Shown: one piece after another, positions 1,416 to 60,121 of the stretch
Position numbering within the stretch: the stretch's first letter is position 1
How the letters are laid out: each line of letters begins with the position of its first letter
Source: an uncultured Candidatus Saccharibacteria bacterium
GTDB taxonomy: Bacteria > Patescibacteriota > Minisyncoccia > Phycocordibacterales > UBA12088
Assembly: GCA_964521185.1 (NCBI GenBank)
Contig: CAZFRC010000001.1
Coordinates: 7,023 to 71,022, forward strand
DNA: 64,000 nucleotides
Direction: 5' to 3'
Program-made: the position numbers and the translations under genes
The notes under the pieces: generated by a model
What the model was told of the DNA's origin: nothing
Seen by the model: the letters and a program-made list of their open reading frames with translations, nothing else
Database searches by the model: none

Positions 1416-1489
1416 GTTTTTCGATGCTGTCCACAGGTAGGTTCTAAAAACGAGAGACGAACAATCTCTTGATACGATATACTTTTTCC

Positions 1490-2017
1490 ATGCCGGGAAT
1501 GATTCTTTTTCTCACGCTGCTTCAGCAAATCGGTATTTCGCTTGCTATTGGCTCGTCCACTTTTGCGCTCATTTTCTATTTCAAATCAATTCGGGATGGC
1601 CGCATTGATGATTCAGAACGGTCGTTCATGCACACGGTGTATCTTGTGCTTCGGATAGGTCTTGTAACGATCGTTATTTCAGAACTACTTTCCGTATTTG
1701 CTTGGTATGATGTCGGCAGTGTTGAGCGAATCGTGAATGCCACCTTCTGGTTTAAATGGACTCTTCTTGCGATTATTGTGGGCAACGCCCTTCTTATGGA
1801 TACCCAGATGATGCCTATGTGGCTTGGGCCAGGAATCGCAGGAGGGTCGTGGTATATGTTTGTGATTGCGCACACGCTCCGCCCGCTCGAAGCCCATTAC
1901 TTCACTTGGATATTCTACTATCTGGTTTTTGTTATTCTGTTCGTTGCGTTTCTCCATTTGGTTCGAATGGTATATGTTGACCATTCGTTTTTTTCCCGTG
2001 GTGTTGGGGAATCATAA
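1490..2017 (+). CDS. Hypothetical polytopic membrane protein
   Basis: ORF track 1469-2017 begins at TTG. The first ATG is at 1490 (MPGMILFLTLL...). Several hydrophobic helices. No known motif. Confidence 0.5.
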   Translation: MPGMILFLTLLQQIGISLAIGSSTFALIFYFKSIRDGRIDDSERSFMHTVYLVLRIGLVTIVISELLSVFAWYDVGSVERIVNATFWFKWTLLAIIVGNALLMDTQMMPMWLGPGIAGGSWYMFVIAHTLRPLEAHYFTWIFYYLVFVILFVAFLHLVRMVYVDHSFFSRGVGES

Positions 2018-9148: not shown

Positions 9149-9190
9149 ACAGAGCCCTAATTTTGGATCTCTTGCGCCATATTGACAGAT

Positions 9191-10264
9191 ATGATAAAAA
9201 ATGGCCTACGGACTACCCCAAATATGCCCGGTCAGAAACTTTCTTTTAAACCAAAGATAGTGAGTAGACGCCTCCTTGAGGTGCTTCCAGAGCGTGCACG
9301 GACCATCCTTGAGGGACGGTATGGTCTTGGAAATTCAGTGCAACACGAGACGCTTGAATCAATTGGCTCTGCATACGGAATCACTCGCGAACGAGTGCGT
9401 CAGATTGAAAATTATGCTCTGAATTCGATTCGCAAGTCCGAAGCATACAAAAAAGAGAAAGGAATATTCGATGAACTCGAAACCAGGATGCGTGAAATGG
9501 GCACAGTGGTGACTGAAGAGGAATTTTTGAATCGATTTGCAAAAGATGAAGAAACTCGCAATTTCATACACTTTCTATTGGTCTTAGGCGATGCATTCGG
9601 GCTCAAAAAAGAAGATGCTGATTTTAAACACCGATGGCATGTCGACGCTGACGTATCTGCCGCAATAGAAAAAGCGCTTCAAGCGCTGTATGACGGTTTG
9701 TCCGACGATGATTTGGTGCCTGAAGGCGAGTTTATTTCGCGATTCCTTGACCACGTGAAGCATCTCTCTGAAGAATATAAAAACGCGGAAATTATTGAAC
9801 GATGGCTTGCGTTATCGAAAAAAATCGGAAAAAACCCTCTAGGAGAATGGGGAAGAGCAAGTTCGCCAAACGTTCGTACTAAAGGCATTCGTGATTATGC
9901 GTACCTCATCATCAAACGACACGGGTCTCCGATGCATTTCCGTGAAGTTGCCGCGGCGATTGCCGAAACGTTTAAACGTCGTGCCCACGAAGCAACGACA
10001 CACAACGAACTTATTAAAGACCCTCGTTTCGTGTTGGTAGGTCGAGGGTTATATGCGCTTTCTGAATGGGGGTATGCAAGTGGCGTTGTAAAAGATGTTA
10101 TTACATCACTCTTGAAGAAATTCGGTCCGATGTCGCGTGACCAAATTATCGAACGAGTCAAGAAAGAACGGTATGTGAAGGACAACACTATTCTGGTGAA
10201 TCTCCAAGACTCAACCCGATTTCGCCGAACGTCAGAAGGGCTCTATTCTCTCGTTGATCTTTAG
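9191..10264 (+). CDS. Putative transcription factor: sigma-70 region-4-like HTH at the N-terminus plus two C-terminal HARE-HTH (RNAP delta-like) winged-helix domains
   Basis: N-term: TILEGRYGLGNSVQHETLESIGSAYGITRERVRQIENYALNSIRK is a region 4.2-type HTH. C-term: DYAYLIIKRHGSPMHFREVAAAIAETF...RFVLVGRGLYALSEWGY and VKDVITSLLKKFGPMSRDQIIERV...RFRRTSEGLYSLV fit the HARE-HTH pattern (G.PM.F.EI...I...F..VGRG.Y.L). The track ORF begins at TTG 9182; the first ATG is at 9191. Confidence 0.55.
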   Translation: MIKNGLRTTPNMPGQKLSFKPKIVSRRLLEVLPERARTILEGRYGLGNSVQHETLESIGSAYGITRERVRQIENYALNSIRKSEAYKKEKGIFDELETRMREMGTVVTEEEFLNRFAKDEETRNFIHFLLVLGDAFGLKKEDADFKHRWHVDADVSAAIEKALQALYDGLSDDDLVPEGEFISRFLDHVKHLSEEYKNAEIIERWLALSKKIGKNPLGEWGRASSPNVRTKGIRDYAYLIIKRHGSPMHFREVAAAIAETFKRRAHEATTHNELIKDPRFVLVGRGLYALSEWGYASGVVKDVITSLLKKFGPMSRDQIIERVKKERYVKDNTILVNLQDSTRFRRTSEGLYSLVDL

Positions 10265-10328: not shown

Positions 10329-11636
10329 ATGATAGAGAAATTTCTCGATGGGTTTGGATTTAATGTTGCGTATGTGGCTGTTGCCGCATTCATTGTAACC
10401 ATTCTGGCTCTTATTCGTTTTGAGCCACAGCTGGCAGTGCAAATTTCTACCAATATCCTAGTCCCCTCAATTCCCATCTGGCTCCCTCCGATACTGTTGT
10501 TGATATTTTGGAAATTATGGATTCAATATATTCGATTACTGTTCGCCACTTCACAACAATACGCATTGCTTGAAATAAAGCTTCCAAAAGAAATTGCTAA
10601 ATCACCGAAAGGAATGGAATTGTTCATGGCTTCAATATGGTCAAGAAGCGGCGAATCCACTTTTTTAGATAGAAGCTGGTATGGCAAACAACGGATTTTT
10701 TATTCGTTTGAAATAGTATCTACCGGAGGGAAAATTCACATGTATATCATGTGCCGAAAAGCGCTTGTCGAAATCACCCAAGCACGATTGTACGCCCAAT
10801 ACCCGGATTTAAGCATTAGCGAAGTTCCTGATTACGCGCGCATGTTTGATTTCGATCATCGATCTTCTAAATTAATCGCTACTGAATATAAATTACGAAA
10901 AAACGACGTGTACCCCATTCGCACCTACGTTGATTACGGATTGGATAAAGATCCGAAAGAAGAATACAAAGTCGATCCACTGACTTCCGTGTTTGAATTG
11001 TTGGGCGAGGTAAAACCTAATGAAAATTTTTGGATTCAGATTATTTTTCGAGCTCGCAAGTCTGACCAACCAGCTCCTGGGTTATGGGCAAAAATAACAA
11101 GCAAGAAAATAAATCAATTAGAAGAAGACGCTCAGAAAACCATAAAAGACATTCTCGCAAAAGCAAAATCTACAGACGCGACCCAAGATTACAACAAACT
11201 TACTAAGGGTCAGCAGTTTGTCATCGAGTCGATAGAACGAGCCACCAGCAAACTTCAGTTTGAGGTAGGTATGCGCGCGCTCTATTTTGCTCCAAAAGAC
11301 ACGTTCAGATTTTCCATAGCTTCAGCATTGTTTACTCTCATGAACCCATTCAACACCAATGATCTTAATGAATTCATTCCTACCCGCTTCCATGCCGGAT
11401 TTGATTATCCATGGCAAGATTTTCGAGATTTTCGTTCAATCCGAGTAATGTATCGAGCGTTTAACTACTATCGTCTTCGTGCGTATTTCAACCCTCCTTA
11501 CGAACAGAGACCTTTTGTGCTTAATTCTGAAGAACTCGCCACAATATTTCATTTTCCCGGTGCAACGCTTCAAACGCCCACGTTGGAAAAAATCCAATCA
11601 CGTCGTTTTGGTGCGCCCGCGAATCTTCCGATGTAA
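10329..11636 (+). CDS. Hypothetical membrane-anchored protein (two N-terminal TM helices, ~350-aa soluble domain)
   Basis: ORF track. No recognisable catalytic motif. Sits between the HARE-HTH protein and mltG. Confidence 0.5.
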   Translation: MIEKFLDGFGFNVAYVAVAAFIVTILALIRFEPQLAVQISTNILVPSIPIWLPPILLLIFWKLWIQYIRLLFATSQQYALLEIKLPKEIAKSPKGMELFMASIWSRSGESTFLDRSWYGKQRIFYSFEIVSTGGKIHMYIMCRKALVEITQARLYAQYPDLSISEVPDYARMFDFDHRSSKLIATEYKLRKNDVYPIRTYVDYGLDKDPKEEYKVDPLTSVFELLGEVKPNENFWIQIIFRARKSDQPAPGLWAKITSKKINQLEEDAQKTIKDILAKAKSTDATQDYNKLTKGQQFVIESIERATSKLQFEVGMRALYFAPKDTFRFSIASALFTLMNPFNTNDLNEFIPTRFHAGFDYPWQDFRDFRSIRVMYRAFNYYRLRAYFNPPYEQRPFVLNSEELATIFHFPGATLQTPTLEKIQSRRFGAPANLPM

Positions 11637-13908: not shown

Positions 13909-14751
13909 ATGCCTCCAGAAATAATGGTCGTTAAAGCCGATGGAACGCGCGAGACGTTCCATCCTTCGAAACTCAGGGATTCCCTTGTCCGAAGCGGTGC
14001 TGACGAAGATGTCGTTTCGACTGTAGTCGAAACTATTGAATCGAATGTGGAAGACGGAATGTCTACTGATGAAATCTATCGGACTGCGTTCCGTCTTCTT
14101 CGCGAACACGCAAGACCCGCAGCTTCTCGTTACTCGCTTCGTCGCGCATTGTTTGACCTTGGACCCACGGGATTTCCATTTGAGGTGTTTGTTGCGGAAA
14201 TTTTTCGTGGCCAAGGTTTTGTCGCGCACACCGGAGTGATGGTTCCAGGGAAATGTGTATCACACGAAGTTGATGTAGTGGCAAAAAAAGACGACCGAAC
14301 TATCGGCGCAGAACTTAAATTTCATAATCAAATCGGATTGAAAACCGACATTAAAATAGCCCTATATGTTCATGCACGGTTTGAGGATATTCGTCTTGGT
14401 CATACGGGAGGAAAGAATCCGATTACGGAAGGAATGTTGATTACAAATACAAAATTTACCAAAGCGGCCATTGATTACGGCAAATGCGTGGGGCTATCAA
14501 TGATTGGATGGAGTTATCCTCAAAAAGGGAATCTTCAGGATTTAATTGAACAAACGGGATTGCATCCGCTCACATGCCTTACCACTCTTACTAATAGTCA
14601 AAAATCGGCCCTACTCAGCCAAAAAATTGTCCTATGTAAATCTATCCAAGAATCTCCAAAAACACTTGAAAAAATGGGTATTAAGAGTAATGCGATTCAA
14701 AAAATAATTGCAGAAGCCGATATCTTGTGCGCACCCCAATCTACGAGATAG
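13909..14751 (+). CDS. ATP-cone domain fused to a restriction-endonuclease-like (Mrr-cat / PD-(D/E)XK) domain, with a C-terminal helix-hairpin-helix-like tail
   Basis: N-term IMVVKADGTRETFHPSKLRDSLVRSG...STDEIYRTAFRLL is an ATP-cone (as in NrdR/RNR). Middle FPFEVFVAEIFRGQGF...SHEVDVVAKKDDRTIGAELKFHN gives D...E-x-K residues on a restriction-endonuclease fold. C-term GIKSNAIQKIIAEA is HhH-like. Confidence 0.6.
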   Translation: MPPEIMVVKADGTRETFHPSKLRDSLVRSGADEDVVSTVVETIESNVEDGMSTDEIYRTAFRLLREHARPAASRYSLRRALFDLGPTGFPFEVFVAEIFRGQGFVAHTGVMVPGKCVSHEVDVVAKKDDRTIGAELKFHNQIGLKTDIKIALYVHARFEDIRLGHTGGKNPITEGMLITNTKFTKAAIDYGKCVGLSMIGWSYPQKGNLQDLIEQTGLHPLTCLTTLTNSQKSALLSQKIVLCKSIQESPKTLEKMGIKSNAIQKIIAEADILCAPQSTR

Positions 14752-21510: not shown

Positions 21511-22719
21511 ATGAGGTGGGGAAACTTTTTTAAGAGAAAGATTCGACATGATGTCACAGCTATTTTTGACCTTGGGAGTTCGACAGTAAACGGAGCACTT
21601 GTAGAAATTCGTCCGAAAGAAAAACCTCTGATTCGATACGCAACGAGAGAGCCCCTTGCTCTTCACGAAAAGGCCTCTTCTGAATACTTGGTGCGATCGA
21701 TGATATCTGGACTTATGGCAGTTTCTTTGCGTATACAAGAAGAAGGAATACGCGAATTTGCTTCAACACATAAGGAAATACTACGAGTAAAAAAAATATT
21801 GGTTATAGTAGGCTCCCCATGGTATATTTCAGAAAATCATTTTGGCGTCCTAGAAAAACAGCGCCCATTCAAAATTACGAAAGACATTATCGCGAGTATC
21901 ACCAAAGAAGAACAAAAACGGTTTGCGAAGATATACGGAGCTACTCCGGAAGGAACGACGCTTTTTGAACAAGCAACTTTCGAAATTGAACTTAATGAGT
22001 ATCCGATTAAAAACCCCTACGGTTATCACGCTCGCAAAGTTGGAGTAGGTTTATTTGAGAGTGTCATGTCTGAAACCGTACGCACAAAAACATTGGAGAC
22101 GATTCAATTCATCGCACCCCATGCGGAAATTACGTTCCACACTCGAGGTCTTGCACTTTTCTCTGTACTCCGTGATCTATTCCATAACGACCATTCTTAT
22201 ATCATTGCTGATATTACGGGAGAGGTTACTGACTTGTTTATTGTGTATGAAGACAAACTAAGGGGTGTCGGTTCGTTTCCCCTCGGTACCCATGCCTTGA
22301 TTCGCGGGATTCAAAAATCATCCAAAATAGGTATGGATGAGGCGCGTACGAGGCTCGAAATGGCGCGCGCCAACGTGCTCGAAAAAGGCGAACGTGCGAT
22401 AGTTGAAGAACTCATACACAAAGGGGTTGTGATGTGGCAGAAAGAATGCACGGCGAATCTCAAAACACTTGTCCCCGATATACCTCTTCCTCGTACCATT
22501 TTTCTTTCTGTCGACAGTCGGTATGCAGAATGGTTTAAAAAATCTCTTGAGGCGACCCCCCTCCCTCGCGCCGCGTTTTCAGATCGAGGATTTCTTCCAC
22601 GCGTTCTCTCTAACAGTTCGCTCAAGTCTTTTTGCGAAATGGAACGAGTTTCCACGACACACCCACTTATCCCCCTGAATGCACTTTTTTTACAAAAACT
22701 GCAATCAGGTGCATACTAA
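21511..22719 (+). CDS. Actin-like ATPase fold protein (FtsA/PilM-like), hypothetical
   Basis: AIFDLGSSTVNGALVEI (phosphate-1-like) and IADITGEVTDLFIV (phosphate-2-like, degenerate). GTHALIRGIQKSSKIGMDEARTRLEMA resembles the FtsA/PilM adenosine motif. 402 aa. Confidence 0.45.
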   Translation: MRWGNFFKRKIRHDVTAIFDLGSSTVNGALVEIRPKEKPLIRYATREPLALHEKASSEYLVRSMISGLMAVSLRIQEEGIREFASTHKEILRVKKILVIVGSPWYISENHFGVLEKQRPFKITKDIIASITKEEQKRFAKIYGATPEGTTLFEQATFEIELNEYPIKNPYGYHARKVGVGLFESVMSETVRTKTLETIQFIAPHAEITFHTRGLALFSVLRDLFHNDHSYIIADITGEVTDLFIVYEDKLRGVGSFPLGTHALIRGIQKSSKIGMDEARTRLEMARANVLEKGERAIVEELIHKGVVMWQKECTANLKTLVPDIPLPRTIFLSVDSRYAEWFKKSLEATPLPRAAFSDRGFLPRVLSNSSLKSFCEMERVSTTHPLIPLNALFLQKLQSGAY

Positions 22720-54791: not shown

Positions 54792-56366
54792 TTAATAGAA
54801 TCGGGTTTCGTCTTCTTTTTCACGCAAAAACGCGAAGAATGCGTCAAGGGTGCCGAGTAAACGCTTGAATGGAGTTTCAATAATAAAGTCGAGAATAAAA
54901 ACAAATATATTGATGCGGGAGAATTTTCTCGACAACCAACGCCCTGCCCGCACAAGCGGCAAGAGCAATAAATTCAACAAAAGACGGAGAGTGCCTCCTC
55001 CTTCGTCGGCGATTTTCCATCGTGCCGCAACATAGCGAAGACGAATTCCGAAATAGCTTACAAATGTGAGGAAGAAGAGAAAGAGTCCAATGGATATGGG
55101 ATTGAATGAAAGCGCCTCGAGTGTAGAAATCACAGATCCTAAAGTAAACACGAACAAGAATACGTATAAAAACGAAAGTACGAATGTGAGCGCGCCCCCC
55201 TCACTCCCGGGCACCACCACTCCACGACGGATAGTTCCGGCTAATACATCTTTCACTTCCGCAATAATTTTTAAAGTATTTTTTGCGTCTGGTTTTTTTA
55301 TGGTTTGTGTCATCACCAACAGCGCCACCGGATGAAAAATCGAGTTAGTAATGAGTGCCGGATAGTGGAGGGCTCCGAGTATGAATCGCTCATATGGAAG
55401 TTCAACAGCAAACGTGAGCGTGATTTTAGTGATGAGCAGATAAATAACCGCGCGGATACCGCTGCGCTTCACACGGTTATACTCACGAGTATATGCTTTG
55501 TCGCAAAAAGCAGTAATTTCTTTTTCGAGCAGCGTCGTATCATTGAATACATTTGAGGCGCCCTCACGATATTTTTTGAGGATCGAAAGAATGACTGAGT
55601 AAGCAATCCCTTCGTTTCTAAGCCGTGCGGCGATACGCGTATGAAGCCCGTCTTCAATGGCGGCATCTGAAACCATAAGTGCGTGGATATAACGAGAGAT
55701 ATTGTCTTCGTTCATTTCCATGTCGCTCCATTCGGGTATGAATCGTCTCCACAGAGCCACCCGAAGTCTAAGCTGATCTTCTGTCAACAGCGTCTCGCGG
55801 CAAGCCAGATACATAGCCACGTCGATATCTTCTTGAGGAAGACCTATGTCACGGAACTGAATTTTCAATTTGGCGCGGTTATAAAATGATTCGACTACCG
55901 ATTCCTCTTCGTGGGTCGGAAATAACAACATCGAAATTTCCCCCGCGGCAATTTCAACCACGCGATCTTTTACCGCAATCCCTTTTGGCCCGCGTTCCGT
56001 AAGTATCTTGCGCAAAATAATATGCTTTCGAAGAATCCGTTCAATATCGTACGCGAGGGATTCAGGTACCGAATGATTGGGTATATACCCCCCATGCACC
56101 AATTCACGCATGAATGTAATTCCAGGTTTTTCATCCAACACCTCTGGGGTGATATATCTTCGAAGAATGCGGACGAGTGCATGATGACGAATCAAGTGTT
56201 CGTCTTTGTAATCAAGTGCGTAGCGAAGCTTTTCATAAAATGTGCCTGTCTTAGTGGTGAGTTCGTGCGCTTCTACTGAAGGGCCTCCATCATACATCTG
56301 CTCACGCGGTCCTTTTTGATAACGTGAGGCAAGGTCTTGAATCAAAATTTGCACAGGTGAATTCAT
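54792..56366 (-). CDS. Hypothetical protein: ~330-aa cytoplasmic N-terminal domain plus C-terminal multi-TM region
   Basis: ORF track. No motif recognised. 4-nt gap to the upstream exonuclease gene. Confidence 0.5.
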   Translation of the reverse strand: MNSPVQILIQDLASRYQKGPREQMYDGGPSVEAHELTTKTGTFYEKLRYALDYKDEHLIRHHALVRILRRYITPEVLDEKPGITFMRELVHGGYIPNHSVPESLAYDIERILRKHIILRKILTERGPKGIAVKDRVVEIAAGEISMLLFPTHEEESVVESFYNRAKLKIQFRDIGLPQEDIDVAMYLACRETLLTEDQLRLRVALWRRFIPEWSDMEMNEDNISRYIHALMVSDAAIEDGLHTRIAARLRNEGIAYSVILSILKKYREGASNVFNDTTLLEKEITAFCDKAYTREYNRVKRSGIRAVIYLLITKITLTFAVELPYERFILGALHYPALITNSIFHPVALLVMTQTIKKPDAKNTLKIIAEVKDVLAGTIRRGVVVPGSEGGALTFVLSFLYVFLFVFTLGSVISTLEALSFNPISIGLFLFFLTFVSYFGIRLRYVAARWKIADEGGGTLRLLLNLLLLPLVRAGRWLSRKFSRINIFVFILDFIIETPFKRLLGTLDAFFAFLREKEDETRFY

Positions 56367-58450: not shown

Positions 58451-60121
58451 TTAACCCTTTTTCCCTTTACCGTTACCGTTACCTTTGCGCTGCATTGCTT
58501 CTGCTTTCAATCTCGCAGCCTCATCCGCAAGTCTTCTCCCCCTCTCTCTTTCTCCCTTCCTCTTTTCTCTTTCTGCTTTAGTAACTATATCTTTTATCAC
58601 AGGATTCAAACAAGCGGCCGCTTTCAGCTCACTCGGAAAGGAACTCATATCGAGAGGCGTGGTTGCCCCCACTTTTACTCGAGAGCTGCCTCCCGCATAC
58701 ACAATTTCCCAATAAGGGGCGCCTTTTTTAGAAATTTTCTGTACAATACGAACAGCACCCATCCCATCAGAAAGCGTAATGAGGAACCCTTCAGTGGGTA
58801 ATCCTGCTCCACTCCCACTTCGTCCCCCTTCTTTCATTTCCTCACGCTCTTTTTTAACCCGATCCCTTTCCCTTCTCAGTTCTTCGGTTCTACCGCTTAT
58901 ATCGTTGTTTCTTCGTTCGTTAAACGCTTTCCAAAAGGGAGACTCGTTCATCCTACCAAAAAGCATTCGAAAAACCTGAGCTTCTTTAGAAAGTTTGTCT
59001 ATCAGATTGAGTGTTTCTTGCGCTTCTTTGTTCCCGGCATTCGCTAATATAGTCAGGATATGAGTGGTGCCAGGTTCTTCTAAAAAACGTAGCGTATGTT
59101 CATGATGCACGCCATCTGCCCCTATCCCCATTTGCCACGGAACTATTTCTCTTGGACTCTCTATCTGCATATTTCCCGTAAACAGCAACACTGAATCCAG
59201 TATTCTTTGCTTCACGCTTCTTATCAAGGACCGATCACCATTTAGCTCGCTCAAGAGAACGTCTGAAAGTTTTGGGTTTCCAGTAATTGTTTCAAGTCTT
59301 GCAAAAGCCGCCTTATGAAGTCTGTTTATTTTTTCTGCGTTTTCTTGTGCGTCTCTTAAAAATTCCCCAGACATTTCTGCTTCCCTACTTTTTCCTTCTC
59401 GACCCCCTGTTTTTTTTGGAGCATATCGGTCCCGATACTCTCGTAATCGACTTACAATTAGATCGGGAACTATATTTTTTCCACCTTCTTCTAGTGTCGG
59501 ATGGCCGAGTTGTAGAGAAATTTTTTGAAGTTCTTCAAGTAATGCTGCTTCTGCCTGTAATCTTTCTGTCAGTATTGCATTCATACGATTTCTTCTTTCT
59601 TCTTCAATCGCCTCTCTTTGTCTGTCAATCTCTGCGGTAATTCTACCAAGAATAGAGTCGAGTTCTGACTGGATCGACTCCGTCAGTTTTAATCCCAAAG
59701 GATTCTGCTTCTCATTCTTTAATTTATCTCTCATATCGAAGAGTCTCCTTAAAGAATTTCCTGTTTTCTCGGTGATAATATTATTTGCTAATAAAGCCGG
59801 GATGTCGGATGTATCTATATTTCGAAAAGCCGCCCCTGTTATATTTTTTTGCGCTTCATCAGTATGATTGATGGCTCTTAAAAGTTTTTCTATTACAGCA
59901 TCCCTCTCCTCAATAACACGATCAATGTCTTCTTGGCTAATCCGCACTGCTCGTATTGCCTCCTCTCCTTCTCGTAATAACGCCTCAATATCGGTATCTG
60001 GAATATCTATAGGGGCTCCACCTGATGGAACAAGCGAAGGCGTTGATTGTTCTTTTTTTAGACCTTCCCCTCCCTTTCTATCCCCACTGCCATTCAACCC
60101 ATTTTTACCTTCAACAGACAT
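58451..60121 (-). CDS. Hypothetical 556-aa cytoplasmic protein, highly charged with long coiled-coil segments
   Basis: ORF track. ATG at complement of 60119-60121. No TM. Lys/Arg/Glu-rich ends (…RKGNGNGKGKKG). No catalytic motif recognised. Confidence 0.5.
   Translation of the reverse strand: MSVEGKNGLNGSGDRKGGEGLKKEQSTPSLVPSGGAPIDIPDTDIEALLREGEEAIRAVRISQEDIDRVIEERDAVIEKLLRAINHTDEAQKNITGAAFRNIDTSDIPALLANNIITEKTGNSLRRLFDMRDKLKNEKQNPLGLKLTESIQSELDSILGRITAEIDRQREAIEEERRNRMNAILTERLQAEAALLEELQKISLQLGHPTLEEGGKNIVPDLIVSRLREYRDRYAPKKTGGREGKSREAEMSGEFLRDAQENAEKINRLHKAAFARLETITGNPKLSDVLLSELNGDRSLIRSVKQRILDSVLLFTGNMQIESPREIVPWQMGIGADGVHHEHTLRFLEEPGTTHILTILANAGNKEAQETLNLIDKLSKEAQVFRMLFGRMNESPFWKAFNERRNNDISGRTEELRRERDRVKKEREEMKEGGRSGSGAGLPTEGFLITLSDGMGAVRIVQKISKKGAPYWEIVYAGGSSRVKVGATTPLDMSSFPSELKAAACLNPVIKDIVTKAEREKRKGERERGRRLADEAARLKAEAMQRKGNGNGKGKKG

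Follow-up and report, generated by a model that had tools for sequence, protein, structure and literature searches.

A sigma-70 region 4 followed by four predicted winged helices in Parcubacteria: a candidate DNA-recognition subunit of an orphan split VirB4/T4CP-type ATPase

Several hexameric membrane ATPases of the TrwB/FtsK superfamily work with a module that reads DNA sequence, as seen with TraM, TrwA, PcfF, the gamma domain of FtsK and Streptomyces TraB. In Patescibacteria, a 2025 survey counts 5,713 VirD4-type homologues in 2,918 genomes; just 148 of them lie close to virB4, relaxases are nearly missing, and exaptation of these homologues is discussed by the authors as possible (PMC12102498). 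The small number of homologues near virB4 and the near-absence of relaxases leave a motor without a known substrate selector. The survey also describes TrsD, a stand-alone VirB4-N-terminal-like protein with homologues mostly beside virB4, and mentions neither DUF8128 nor any sigma-like or helix-turn-helix (HTH) protein (PMC12102498). The subject here is one gene in a 64-kb stretch of DNA (contig CAZFRC010000001.1; the whole analysed stretch is called the window) that encodes a sigma-70 region 4 followed by four predicted winged helices, the third of which is a HARE-HTH domain. This sigma4/HARE-HTH protein is tentatively read as the DNA-recognition or adaptor subunit of an orphan split ATPase of the VirB4/type IV coupling protein (T4CP) type, a reading that we hold at somewhat less than an even chance. 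The gene and its most constant neighbour are as follows:

9224..10264 (stop codon included), + strand: gene for the sigma4 module and four winged helices, from its likely start (open reading frame list, upstream sequence and homologue starts)
10329..11636, + strand: DUF8128 (PF26449), with N-terminal transmembrane helices and a VirB4-N-terminal-like domain

The reading is built on gene order. Of the 82 loci compared (80 belong to GTDB species genomes), 73 have DUF8128 directly after the family gene and in the same orientation, and the exceptions are mostly contigs that end too early. In the same loci YceG follows in 67 and MnmA in 58, and leucyl-tRNA synthetase (LeuRS) precedes in 57. Of 6 distant members looked up singly, 5 have DUF8128 next, with varying genes upstream (LeuRS, YjbQ or SecDF): YjbQ in L083/L084 and SecD/SecF in L085, L086 and L087, while L088 begins at the family gene, all with DUF8128 next. 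Little space separates the two genes (4 nt in L083, 64 nt in the window). A metagenome scan seeded by distant members adds about 40 more full-length loci, and DUF8128 is next in nearly all that have room for it; the loci lacking it at this place are two of the scan, L108 and L130, and one of the single look-ups, L089. Conversely, three DUF8128 proteins used as starting points each have the sigma4/HARE-HTH gene immediately upstream (3/3).

In diverse loci a third gene follows DUF8128, encoding an ATPase, in 22 of 29 with at least 3.5 kb downstream (23 when one shorter contig is included). This is a soluble protein of 540-670 aa with a C-terminal treble-clef zinc finger. It matches TrwB_AAD_bind with 49.5 bits against a cut-off of 20.5, also passes DUF87, T4SS-DNA_transf and TraG-D_C (all Pfam), and has the R388 coupling protein TrwB as its best sequence match in the PDB. 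DUF8128 and this downstream motor thus look like the two halves of a split VirB4/T4CP-type ATPase, DUF8128 being the N-terminal one, anchored in the membrane, and the motor the soluble one. The ATPase is probably among the virB4-distant T4CP homologues counted in the survey (PMC12102498). Comparative genomics treats gene order that survives a change of neighbours as the best sequence-only indicator of a functional, often physical link. The ATPase-subunit reading is ranked first because this gene order persists while every other neighbour changes.

The gene lies in an uninterrupted open reading frame (ORF; 9182..10264, + strand) that opens with TTG at 9182. The preliminary description started it at ATG 9191, giving 357 aa; a second in-frame ATG at 9224 gives 346 aa and is likely the true start (M12), because most homologues begin there in the alignment. 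Residue numbers below are counted from ATG 9191. The protein is divided as follows:

9239..9454, + strand: sigma-70 region 4 (4.1 and 4.2), residues 17-88, mean net charge +7.1 (Pfam, PDB matches, charge)
9383..9409, + strand: recognition helix T-R-E-R-V-R-Q-I-E, residues 65-73 (aligned to E. coli sigma70 T583-E591)
9455..9646, + strand: winged-helix-like module 1, residues 89-152, mean net charge -6.6 (predicted H-E-H-H-E-E with pLDDT >90)
9647..9868, + strand: winged-helix-like module 2, residues 153-226, mean net charge -3.6 (predicted model, charge)
9875..10072, + strand: HARE-HTH 1, residues 229-294, mean net charge +5.9, with the motifs HF, HNELIKD and GRGxYAL
10073..10261, + strand: HARE-HTH-like winged helix 2, residues 295-357, mean net charge +3.7 (sub-threshold Pfam match, predicted model)

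The N-terminal module had been taken for sigma region 4, and this assignment is now firm. Sigma70_r4 (PF04545) matches residues 28-82 over the full profile with 55.1 bits against a cut-off of 24.1 (E 5e-15), and in NCBIfam only the region-4 ends of the RpoD, RpoS and RpoH models match the protein. Sequence and fold matches of the module in the PDB are to region 4 of SigA/RpoD, and its superposition with the –35 DNA-bound region 4 of sigmaA gives a root-mean-square deviation (rmsd) of 0.9-2 Å at 33-47% identity. Regions 2 and 3 are missing, as had been noted: Pfam and NCBIfam give no Sigma70_r2 or r3 match in the protein, and tblastn of the 64-kb window with regions 2-4 of E. coli sigma70 (an approximate sequence) aligns only residues ~28-81 of this ORF.

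Two HARE-HTH copies had also been proposed. The first stands: when residues 229-294 are searched alone, HARE-HTH (PF05066) scores 29.5 bits against a cut-off of 25.9, and no part of the protein is better conserved. Residues 295-357 stay below the cut-off (14.3 bits, E 0.055, profile positions 2-69 of 71); the argument for a second HARE-HTH copy is one of predicted fold only. In the AlphaFold2 (AF2) model, built with 35 homologues, the mean predicted local distance difference test (pLDDT) is 89.9 and the predicted template-modelling (TM) score is 0.74. The whole chain is folded except residues 1-11, with five modules: sigma4 and, after residue 88, four winged helices. The preliminary description overlooked the two in the middle (~89-152 and 153-226), which have no Pfam match. 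Compared with one another by hhalign, the five modules give no significant pair (best probability 2.4%), and the middle ones are not put forward as degenerate HARE-HTH copies.

At least 8000 clusters at 90% identity match the protein at E ≤1e-3 in a word-indexed search. Among the best 120 of these homologues the same Pfam pair is present in 120/120, at 342-386 aa and 60-67% identity, so the architecture is not a chance one. When representatives at 50% identity are searched exhaustively, 719 clusters reach E ≤1e-30 and 1949 reach E ≤1e-10, with full-length members of ~340-355 aa. Judged by the labels of the related loci, the family belongs to the Parcubacteria group of Patescibacteria (Kaiser-, Taylor-, Nomura-, Campbell- and Vogelbacteria, Paceibacterota). 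It is already visible in databases through precomputed Pfam annotations of the domain pair and a generic NCBI product name, "sigma factor-like helix-turn-helix DNA-binding protein"; other entries read "hypothetical protein" and, once, "DNA-directed RNA polymerase delta subunit". The architecture had been called unfamiliar from characterised proteins, in agreement with the present searches, which found no characterised member, solved structure or paper for the family. Literature searches on DUF8128, on Patescibacteria sigma or delta and on HARE-HTH with sigma returned nothing on it, nor was a prior mention found of the cassette formed by the sigma4/HARE-HTH protein, DUF8128 and the orphan T4CP-like ATPase. 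The founding paper on HARE-HTH (by Aravind and Iyer, 2012) may list a combination of sigma region 4 and HARE-HTH, so that the bare domain pair may already be on record.

All nine residues of TRERVRQIE are invariant in the alignment with homologues (9/9), and R-E-R-x-R-Q is invariant among 105 cluster representatives that share 30-56% identity with the window protein. The other invariant columns in these representatives belong to HARE-HTH 1, at HF, HN(E)L(IKD) and G(R)GxYAL. In E. coli sigma70 the equivalent residues include R584, E585, R586, R588 and Q589, which are –35 contacts according to sigma70 genetics and the Taq sigma4/–35 structure 1KU7. Since TRERVRQIE aligns to these residues, the protein is predicted to bind double-stranded DNA (dsDNA) with a TTGACA-like preference. 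HARE-HTH domains act as DNA binders elsewhere too. That of ASXL1 bound duplex DNA containing N6-methyladenine in vitro (PMC6591016).

The protein shares with primary (group 1) sigma-70 factors, SigA/RpoD, the same region 4 fold, with 4.1, 4.2 and the motif TRER(I/V)RQIE. In contrast to these, it has no regions 1.1, 2 and 3, and its region 4 is N-terminal and followed by four winged helices. Without regions 1.1, 2 and 3 there would be neither binding of core RNA polymerase (RNAP) through region 2 nor –10 melting, and the absence of region 2 rules out a sigma factor. The delta subunit of Firmicutes (RpoE) consists of a HARE-HTH domain and, after it, an acidic tail that is intrinsically disordered and carries a net charge of -47 (PMC7749165). 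The HARE-HTH modules of the window protein are instead C-terminal, basic and duplicated, and no acidic tail follows. It is not a delta subunit on these grounds, and also because the NCBIfam delta model TIGR04567 stays under its cut-off (30.4 bits against 42), with the match at residues 235-302 rather than at the N-terminus. In a profile comparison with the N-terminal domain of B. subtilis delta (approximate sequence), HARE-HTH 1 aligns at 25% identity with a probability of 5.6%. Tandem winged helices also occur in the SelB C-terminus, RPC62, UFL1-DDRGK1 and Dcc1. Their likeness is topological only (TM 0.2-0.3, rmsd >11 Å), and none of them has a sigma4 module.

The likeness to TraM, TrwA, PcfF, FtsK gamma and TraB is a functional parallel, drawn by inference; here, too, the gene is encoded beside such an ATPase. 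The window protein is made of sigma4 and winged helices rather than the ribbon-helix-helix of TraM, TrwA and PcfF. Unlike FtsK gamma and TraB, it is a separate protein and not the C-terminal domain of the motor. In contrast to T4CP accessory systems, the module is chromosomal, near-universal in the clade and without a relaxase, and its motor is split in two. TrsD offers a precedent for a stand-alone VirB4-N-terminal-like protein (PMC12102498), the difference being that TrsD is mostly beside virB4 whereas DUF8128 adjoins the sigma4 gene.

According to the favoured reading, the sigma4/HARE-HTH protein would be a soluble, multi-module dsDNA binder of Parcubacteria/Paceibacteria, with a sigma region 4 copied from a primary sigma and a –35-type recognition helix left intact. 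Its three basic modules (sigma4 and the two HARE-HTH) would hold DNA, probably a TTGACA-like hexamer and its flanks, and the two acidic middle modules would dock onto the membrane ATPase complex. DUF8128 would provide the membrane anchor and the VirB4-N-terminal-like domain, and the separate soluble VirD4/TrwB-like motor with its zinc ribbon would provide the ATPase. We infer that the protein contacts both DUF8128 and the ATPase. The DNA transaction could be export through a separate type IV secretion system (T4SS), uptake or segregation, and no choice is made among them. A bolder version, possible but doubtful, is that Paceibacteria carry a three-part chromosomal DNA-handling machine composed of DUF8128, a VirD4/TrwB-type motor and a sigma4/winged-helix sequence reader that acts through the –35 helix. 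If so, the reader would replace the missing relaxase/oriT (origin of transfer) logic or act like the FtsK gamma domain, and the machine would account for hundreds to thousands of orphan coupling-protein genes in genomes of the Candidate Phyla Radiation (CPR).

Several points weigh against an ATPase subunit. Gene order is the sole tie between the protein and the ATPase, and the stretch from LeuRS to MnmA is wholly syntenic in close relatives, which makes the signal partly one of plain conserved gene order. The ATPase gene is absent from the 64-kb window, where YceG follows DUF8128, and none lies within 8 kb in the window or its 80 closest GTDB loci, in which only DUF8128 is adjacent. Should the motor be missing from the genomes of the window's clade, the model fails for those genomes. 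TTGACA occurs 29 times in the window against 39 expected, neither enriched nor strand-skewed. The known T4CP accessory proteins TraM, TrwA and PcfF all use ribbon-helix-helix folds and not sigma4 or winged helices, and exact retention of a primary-sigma helix also fits a factor directed to RNAP or promoters. Mean identity in the same genomes (YchF 61%, sigma4/HARE-HTH protein 56%, LeuRS 47%, MnmA 45%, YceG 41%, DUF8128 36%) is somewhat inflated for the sigma4/HARE-HTH protein, as the loci were picked by similarity to it. The high conservation itself counts in favour of an ATPase subunit, being what is expected of a component with several fixed partners.

The preliminary description suggested an RNAP-associated or anti-sigma-like regulator, a guess that drew only on where both domains are best known from. 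No computed support for RNAP binding was obtained, and anti-sigma domains of the zf-HC2/RsrA, RskA, FlgM, Rsd and AsiA types give no Pfam or NCBIfam match up to E 10. The gene context points to a membrane-anchored VirB4/VirD4-type ATPase module and not to transcription genes. RNAP association is kept as the main rival, in the form of a general transcription factor whose linkage to DUF8128 reflects co-regulation or coincidence; we consider this unlikely. On this account, and with the same low confidence, sigma4 would dock on the beta-flap tip and/or the –35 element in place of sigmaA region 4. HARE-HTH would bind RNAP like the delta N-terminal domain, modulating initiation or recycling genome-wide, which is given no better chance. 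Delta itself attaches to RNAP at the beta' shelf and jaw. The primary-sigma character of region 4 and the delta-like fold speak for this reading, under which a free-standing region 4 would form the basis of a new basal transcription factor. However, the acidic disordered tail, the functional part of delta (PMC7749165), is lacking, the C-terminal half is basic, and the delta model scores below its cut-off. Moreover, an RNAP, sigma or Nus gene is a conserved neighbour in none of ~130 loci, whereas DUF8128 is nearly constant. The conservation of residues that align with flap contacts is uninformative, as these residues also belong to the fold core.

A dedicated local regulator of the DUF8128(-ATPase) operon, with the sigma4 HTH on an operator that perhaps overlaps a –35 element, is slightly less probable still. 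A DNA-binding gene placed first, co-directional with its companions and close to them, is the classic arrangement for such a regulator. However, the protein is far more conserved than its supposed target (56% identity against 36% for DUF8128). Five modules and 345 aa, at a length fixed across the 719 clusters, are unlike a simple repressor, and the recognition helix is invariant family-wide whereas local regulators and their operators usually drift together.

A two-piece sigma factor, in which the protein supplies region 4 in trans to a truncated primary sigma, is very improbable. In its favour, the recognition helix does not differ from the one in primary sigmas, and no canonical sigma gene was found in the window (tblastn) or in the flanks of the first 82 loci; against it, contig L089 carries a family member together with a sigma that has its own regions 2-4, including FGVTRERIRQV. 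Equally remote is a secreted effector delivered by the T4SS coupling ATPase to bind host promoters or RNAP, which would suit the position beside a coupling-protein-like ATPase and a –35 helix fit for most bacterial hosts, but the protein evolves more slowly than the neighbouring LeuRS whereas effectors usually evolve fast, its length is uniform with no obvious signal, and just 148 of the 5,713 Patescibacteria VirD4-type homologues are near virB4 (PMC12102498). Anti-phage defence was rejected after a PADLOC search, in which the protein matches a single model, MzaA, at the region-4 end of its profile (positions 592-679 of 683, 37.9 bits), and DUF8128 matches none.

A large part of bacterial diversity falls within CPR/Patescibacteria, whose core biology is mostly inferred. 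The sigma4/HARE-HTH family is among the most conserved CPR proteins annotated without a function, exceeding LeuRS in the same genomes. By naming three proteins together, the cassette gives a concrete hypothesis for thousands of unexplained VirD4-type ATPase genes (PMC12102498). Either outcome, an ATPase subunit or an RNAP factor, would be informative.

The window has ~45% G+C, and the gene stands in a long co-directional run of housekeeping genes. The run includes YchF, DUF5671, LeuRS, the sigma4/HARE-HTH gene, DUF8128, YceG/MltG, MnmA and alanyl-tRNA synthetase (AlaRS), as well as ribosomal proteins S13, S11 and S4, RpoA, GrpE, DnaK, DnaJ, FtsW and MurG. A scan for promoters and terminators around the gene gives no excess over shuffles. 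A perfect TTGACA is present at 9182-9187, just 5' of the ATG codons of the gene and overlapping the alternative TTG start; no matching –10 element lies 16-18 nt away, and the promoter scan made no call there.

Two contigs carry unusual fusions. In L089 (3962-7714, - strand) an ORF of 1250 aa joins a superfamily 2 (SF2) helicase (ResIII/DEAD/SNF2), repeats, sigma-70 regions 2-4 and RNase III; it is convergent with the family member P0149, and its sigma part is 34% identical to E. coli sigma70 over 244 aa (E 7e-40). Either the fusion is real, if odd, or the ORF arose in assembly. In L085 (6385-8364) an in-frame fusion of SecF with a family member yields the 659-aa protein P0150. Because no other sequence clusters with P0150, and because L086 and L087 encode SecF separately, just upstream, the fusion is read as an artefact, probably a lost stop codon or else an assembly error. 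As a true fusion it would tether the DNA binder to the membrane.

Three family loci (L032, L052 and L056) come from metagenome-assembled genomes labelled Thermodesulfobacteriota, Azotimanducaceae and Spirochaetaceae. They lie on contigs of 3-11 kb with Parcubacteria-type synteny (LeuRS, DUF8128, YceG) and are most likely mis-binned. Many of the 'Candidatus Saccharibacteria' labels of third-party annotation (TPA) records look generic. In L170 (284-4756) LeuRS reaches 1490 aa with internal NUDIX and Ser_hydrolase Pfam matches, compared with 825 aa in the window. ORFs of 182-556 aa that have no Pfam family at E ≤0.001 lie in the window at 21511-22719 (+), 54792-56366 (-), 58451-60121 (-) and 1469-2017 (+). 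At 13909-14751 the window encodes a 280-aa protein that combines an ATP-cone, an Mrr-type restriction-endonuclease fold and an AF1548-like C-terminal domain, and this protein is kept a few kb downstream in 38 of the 82 related loci.
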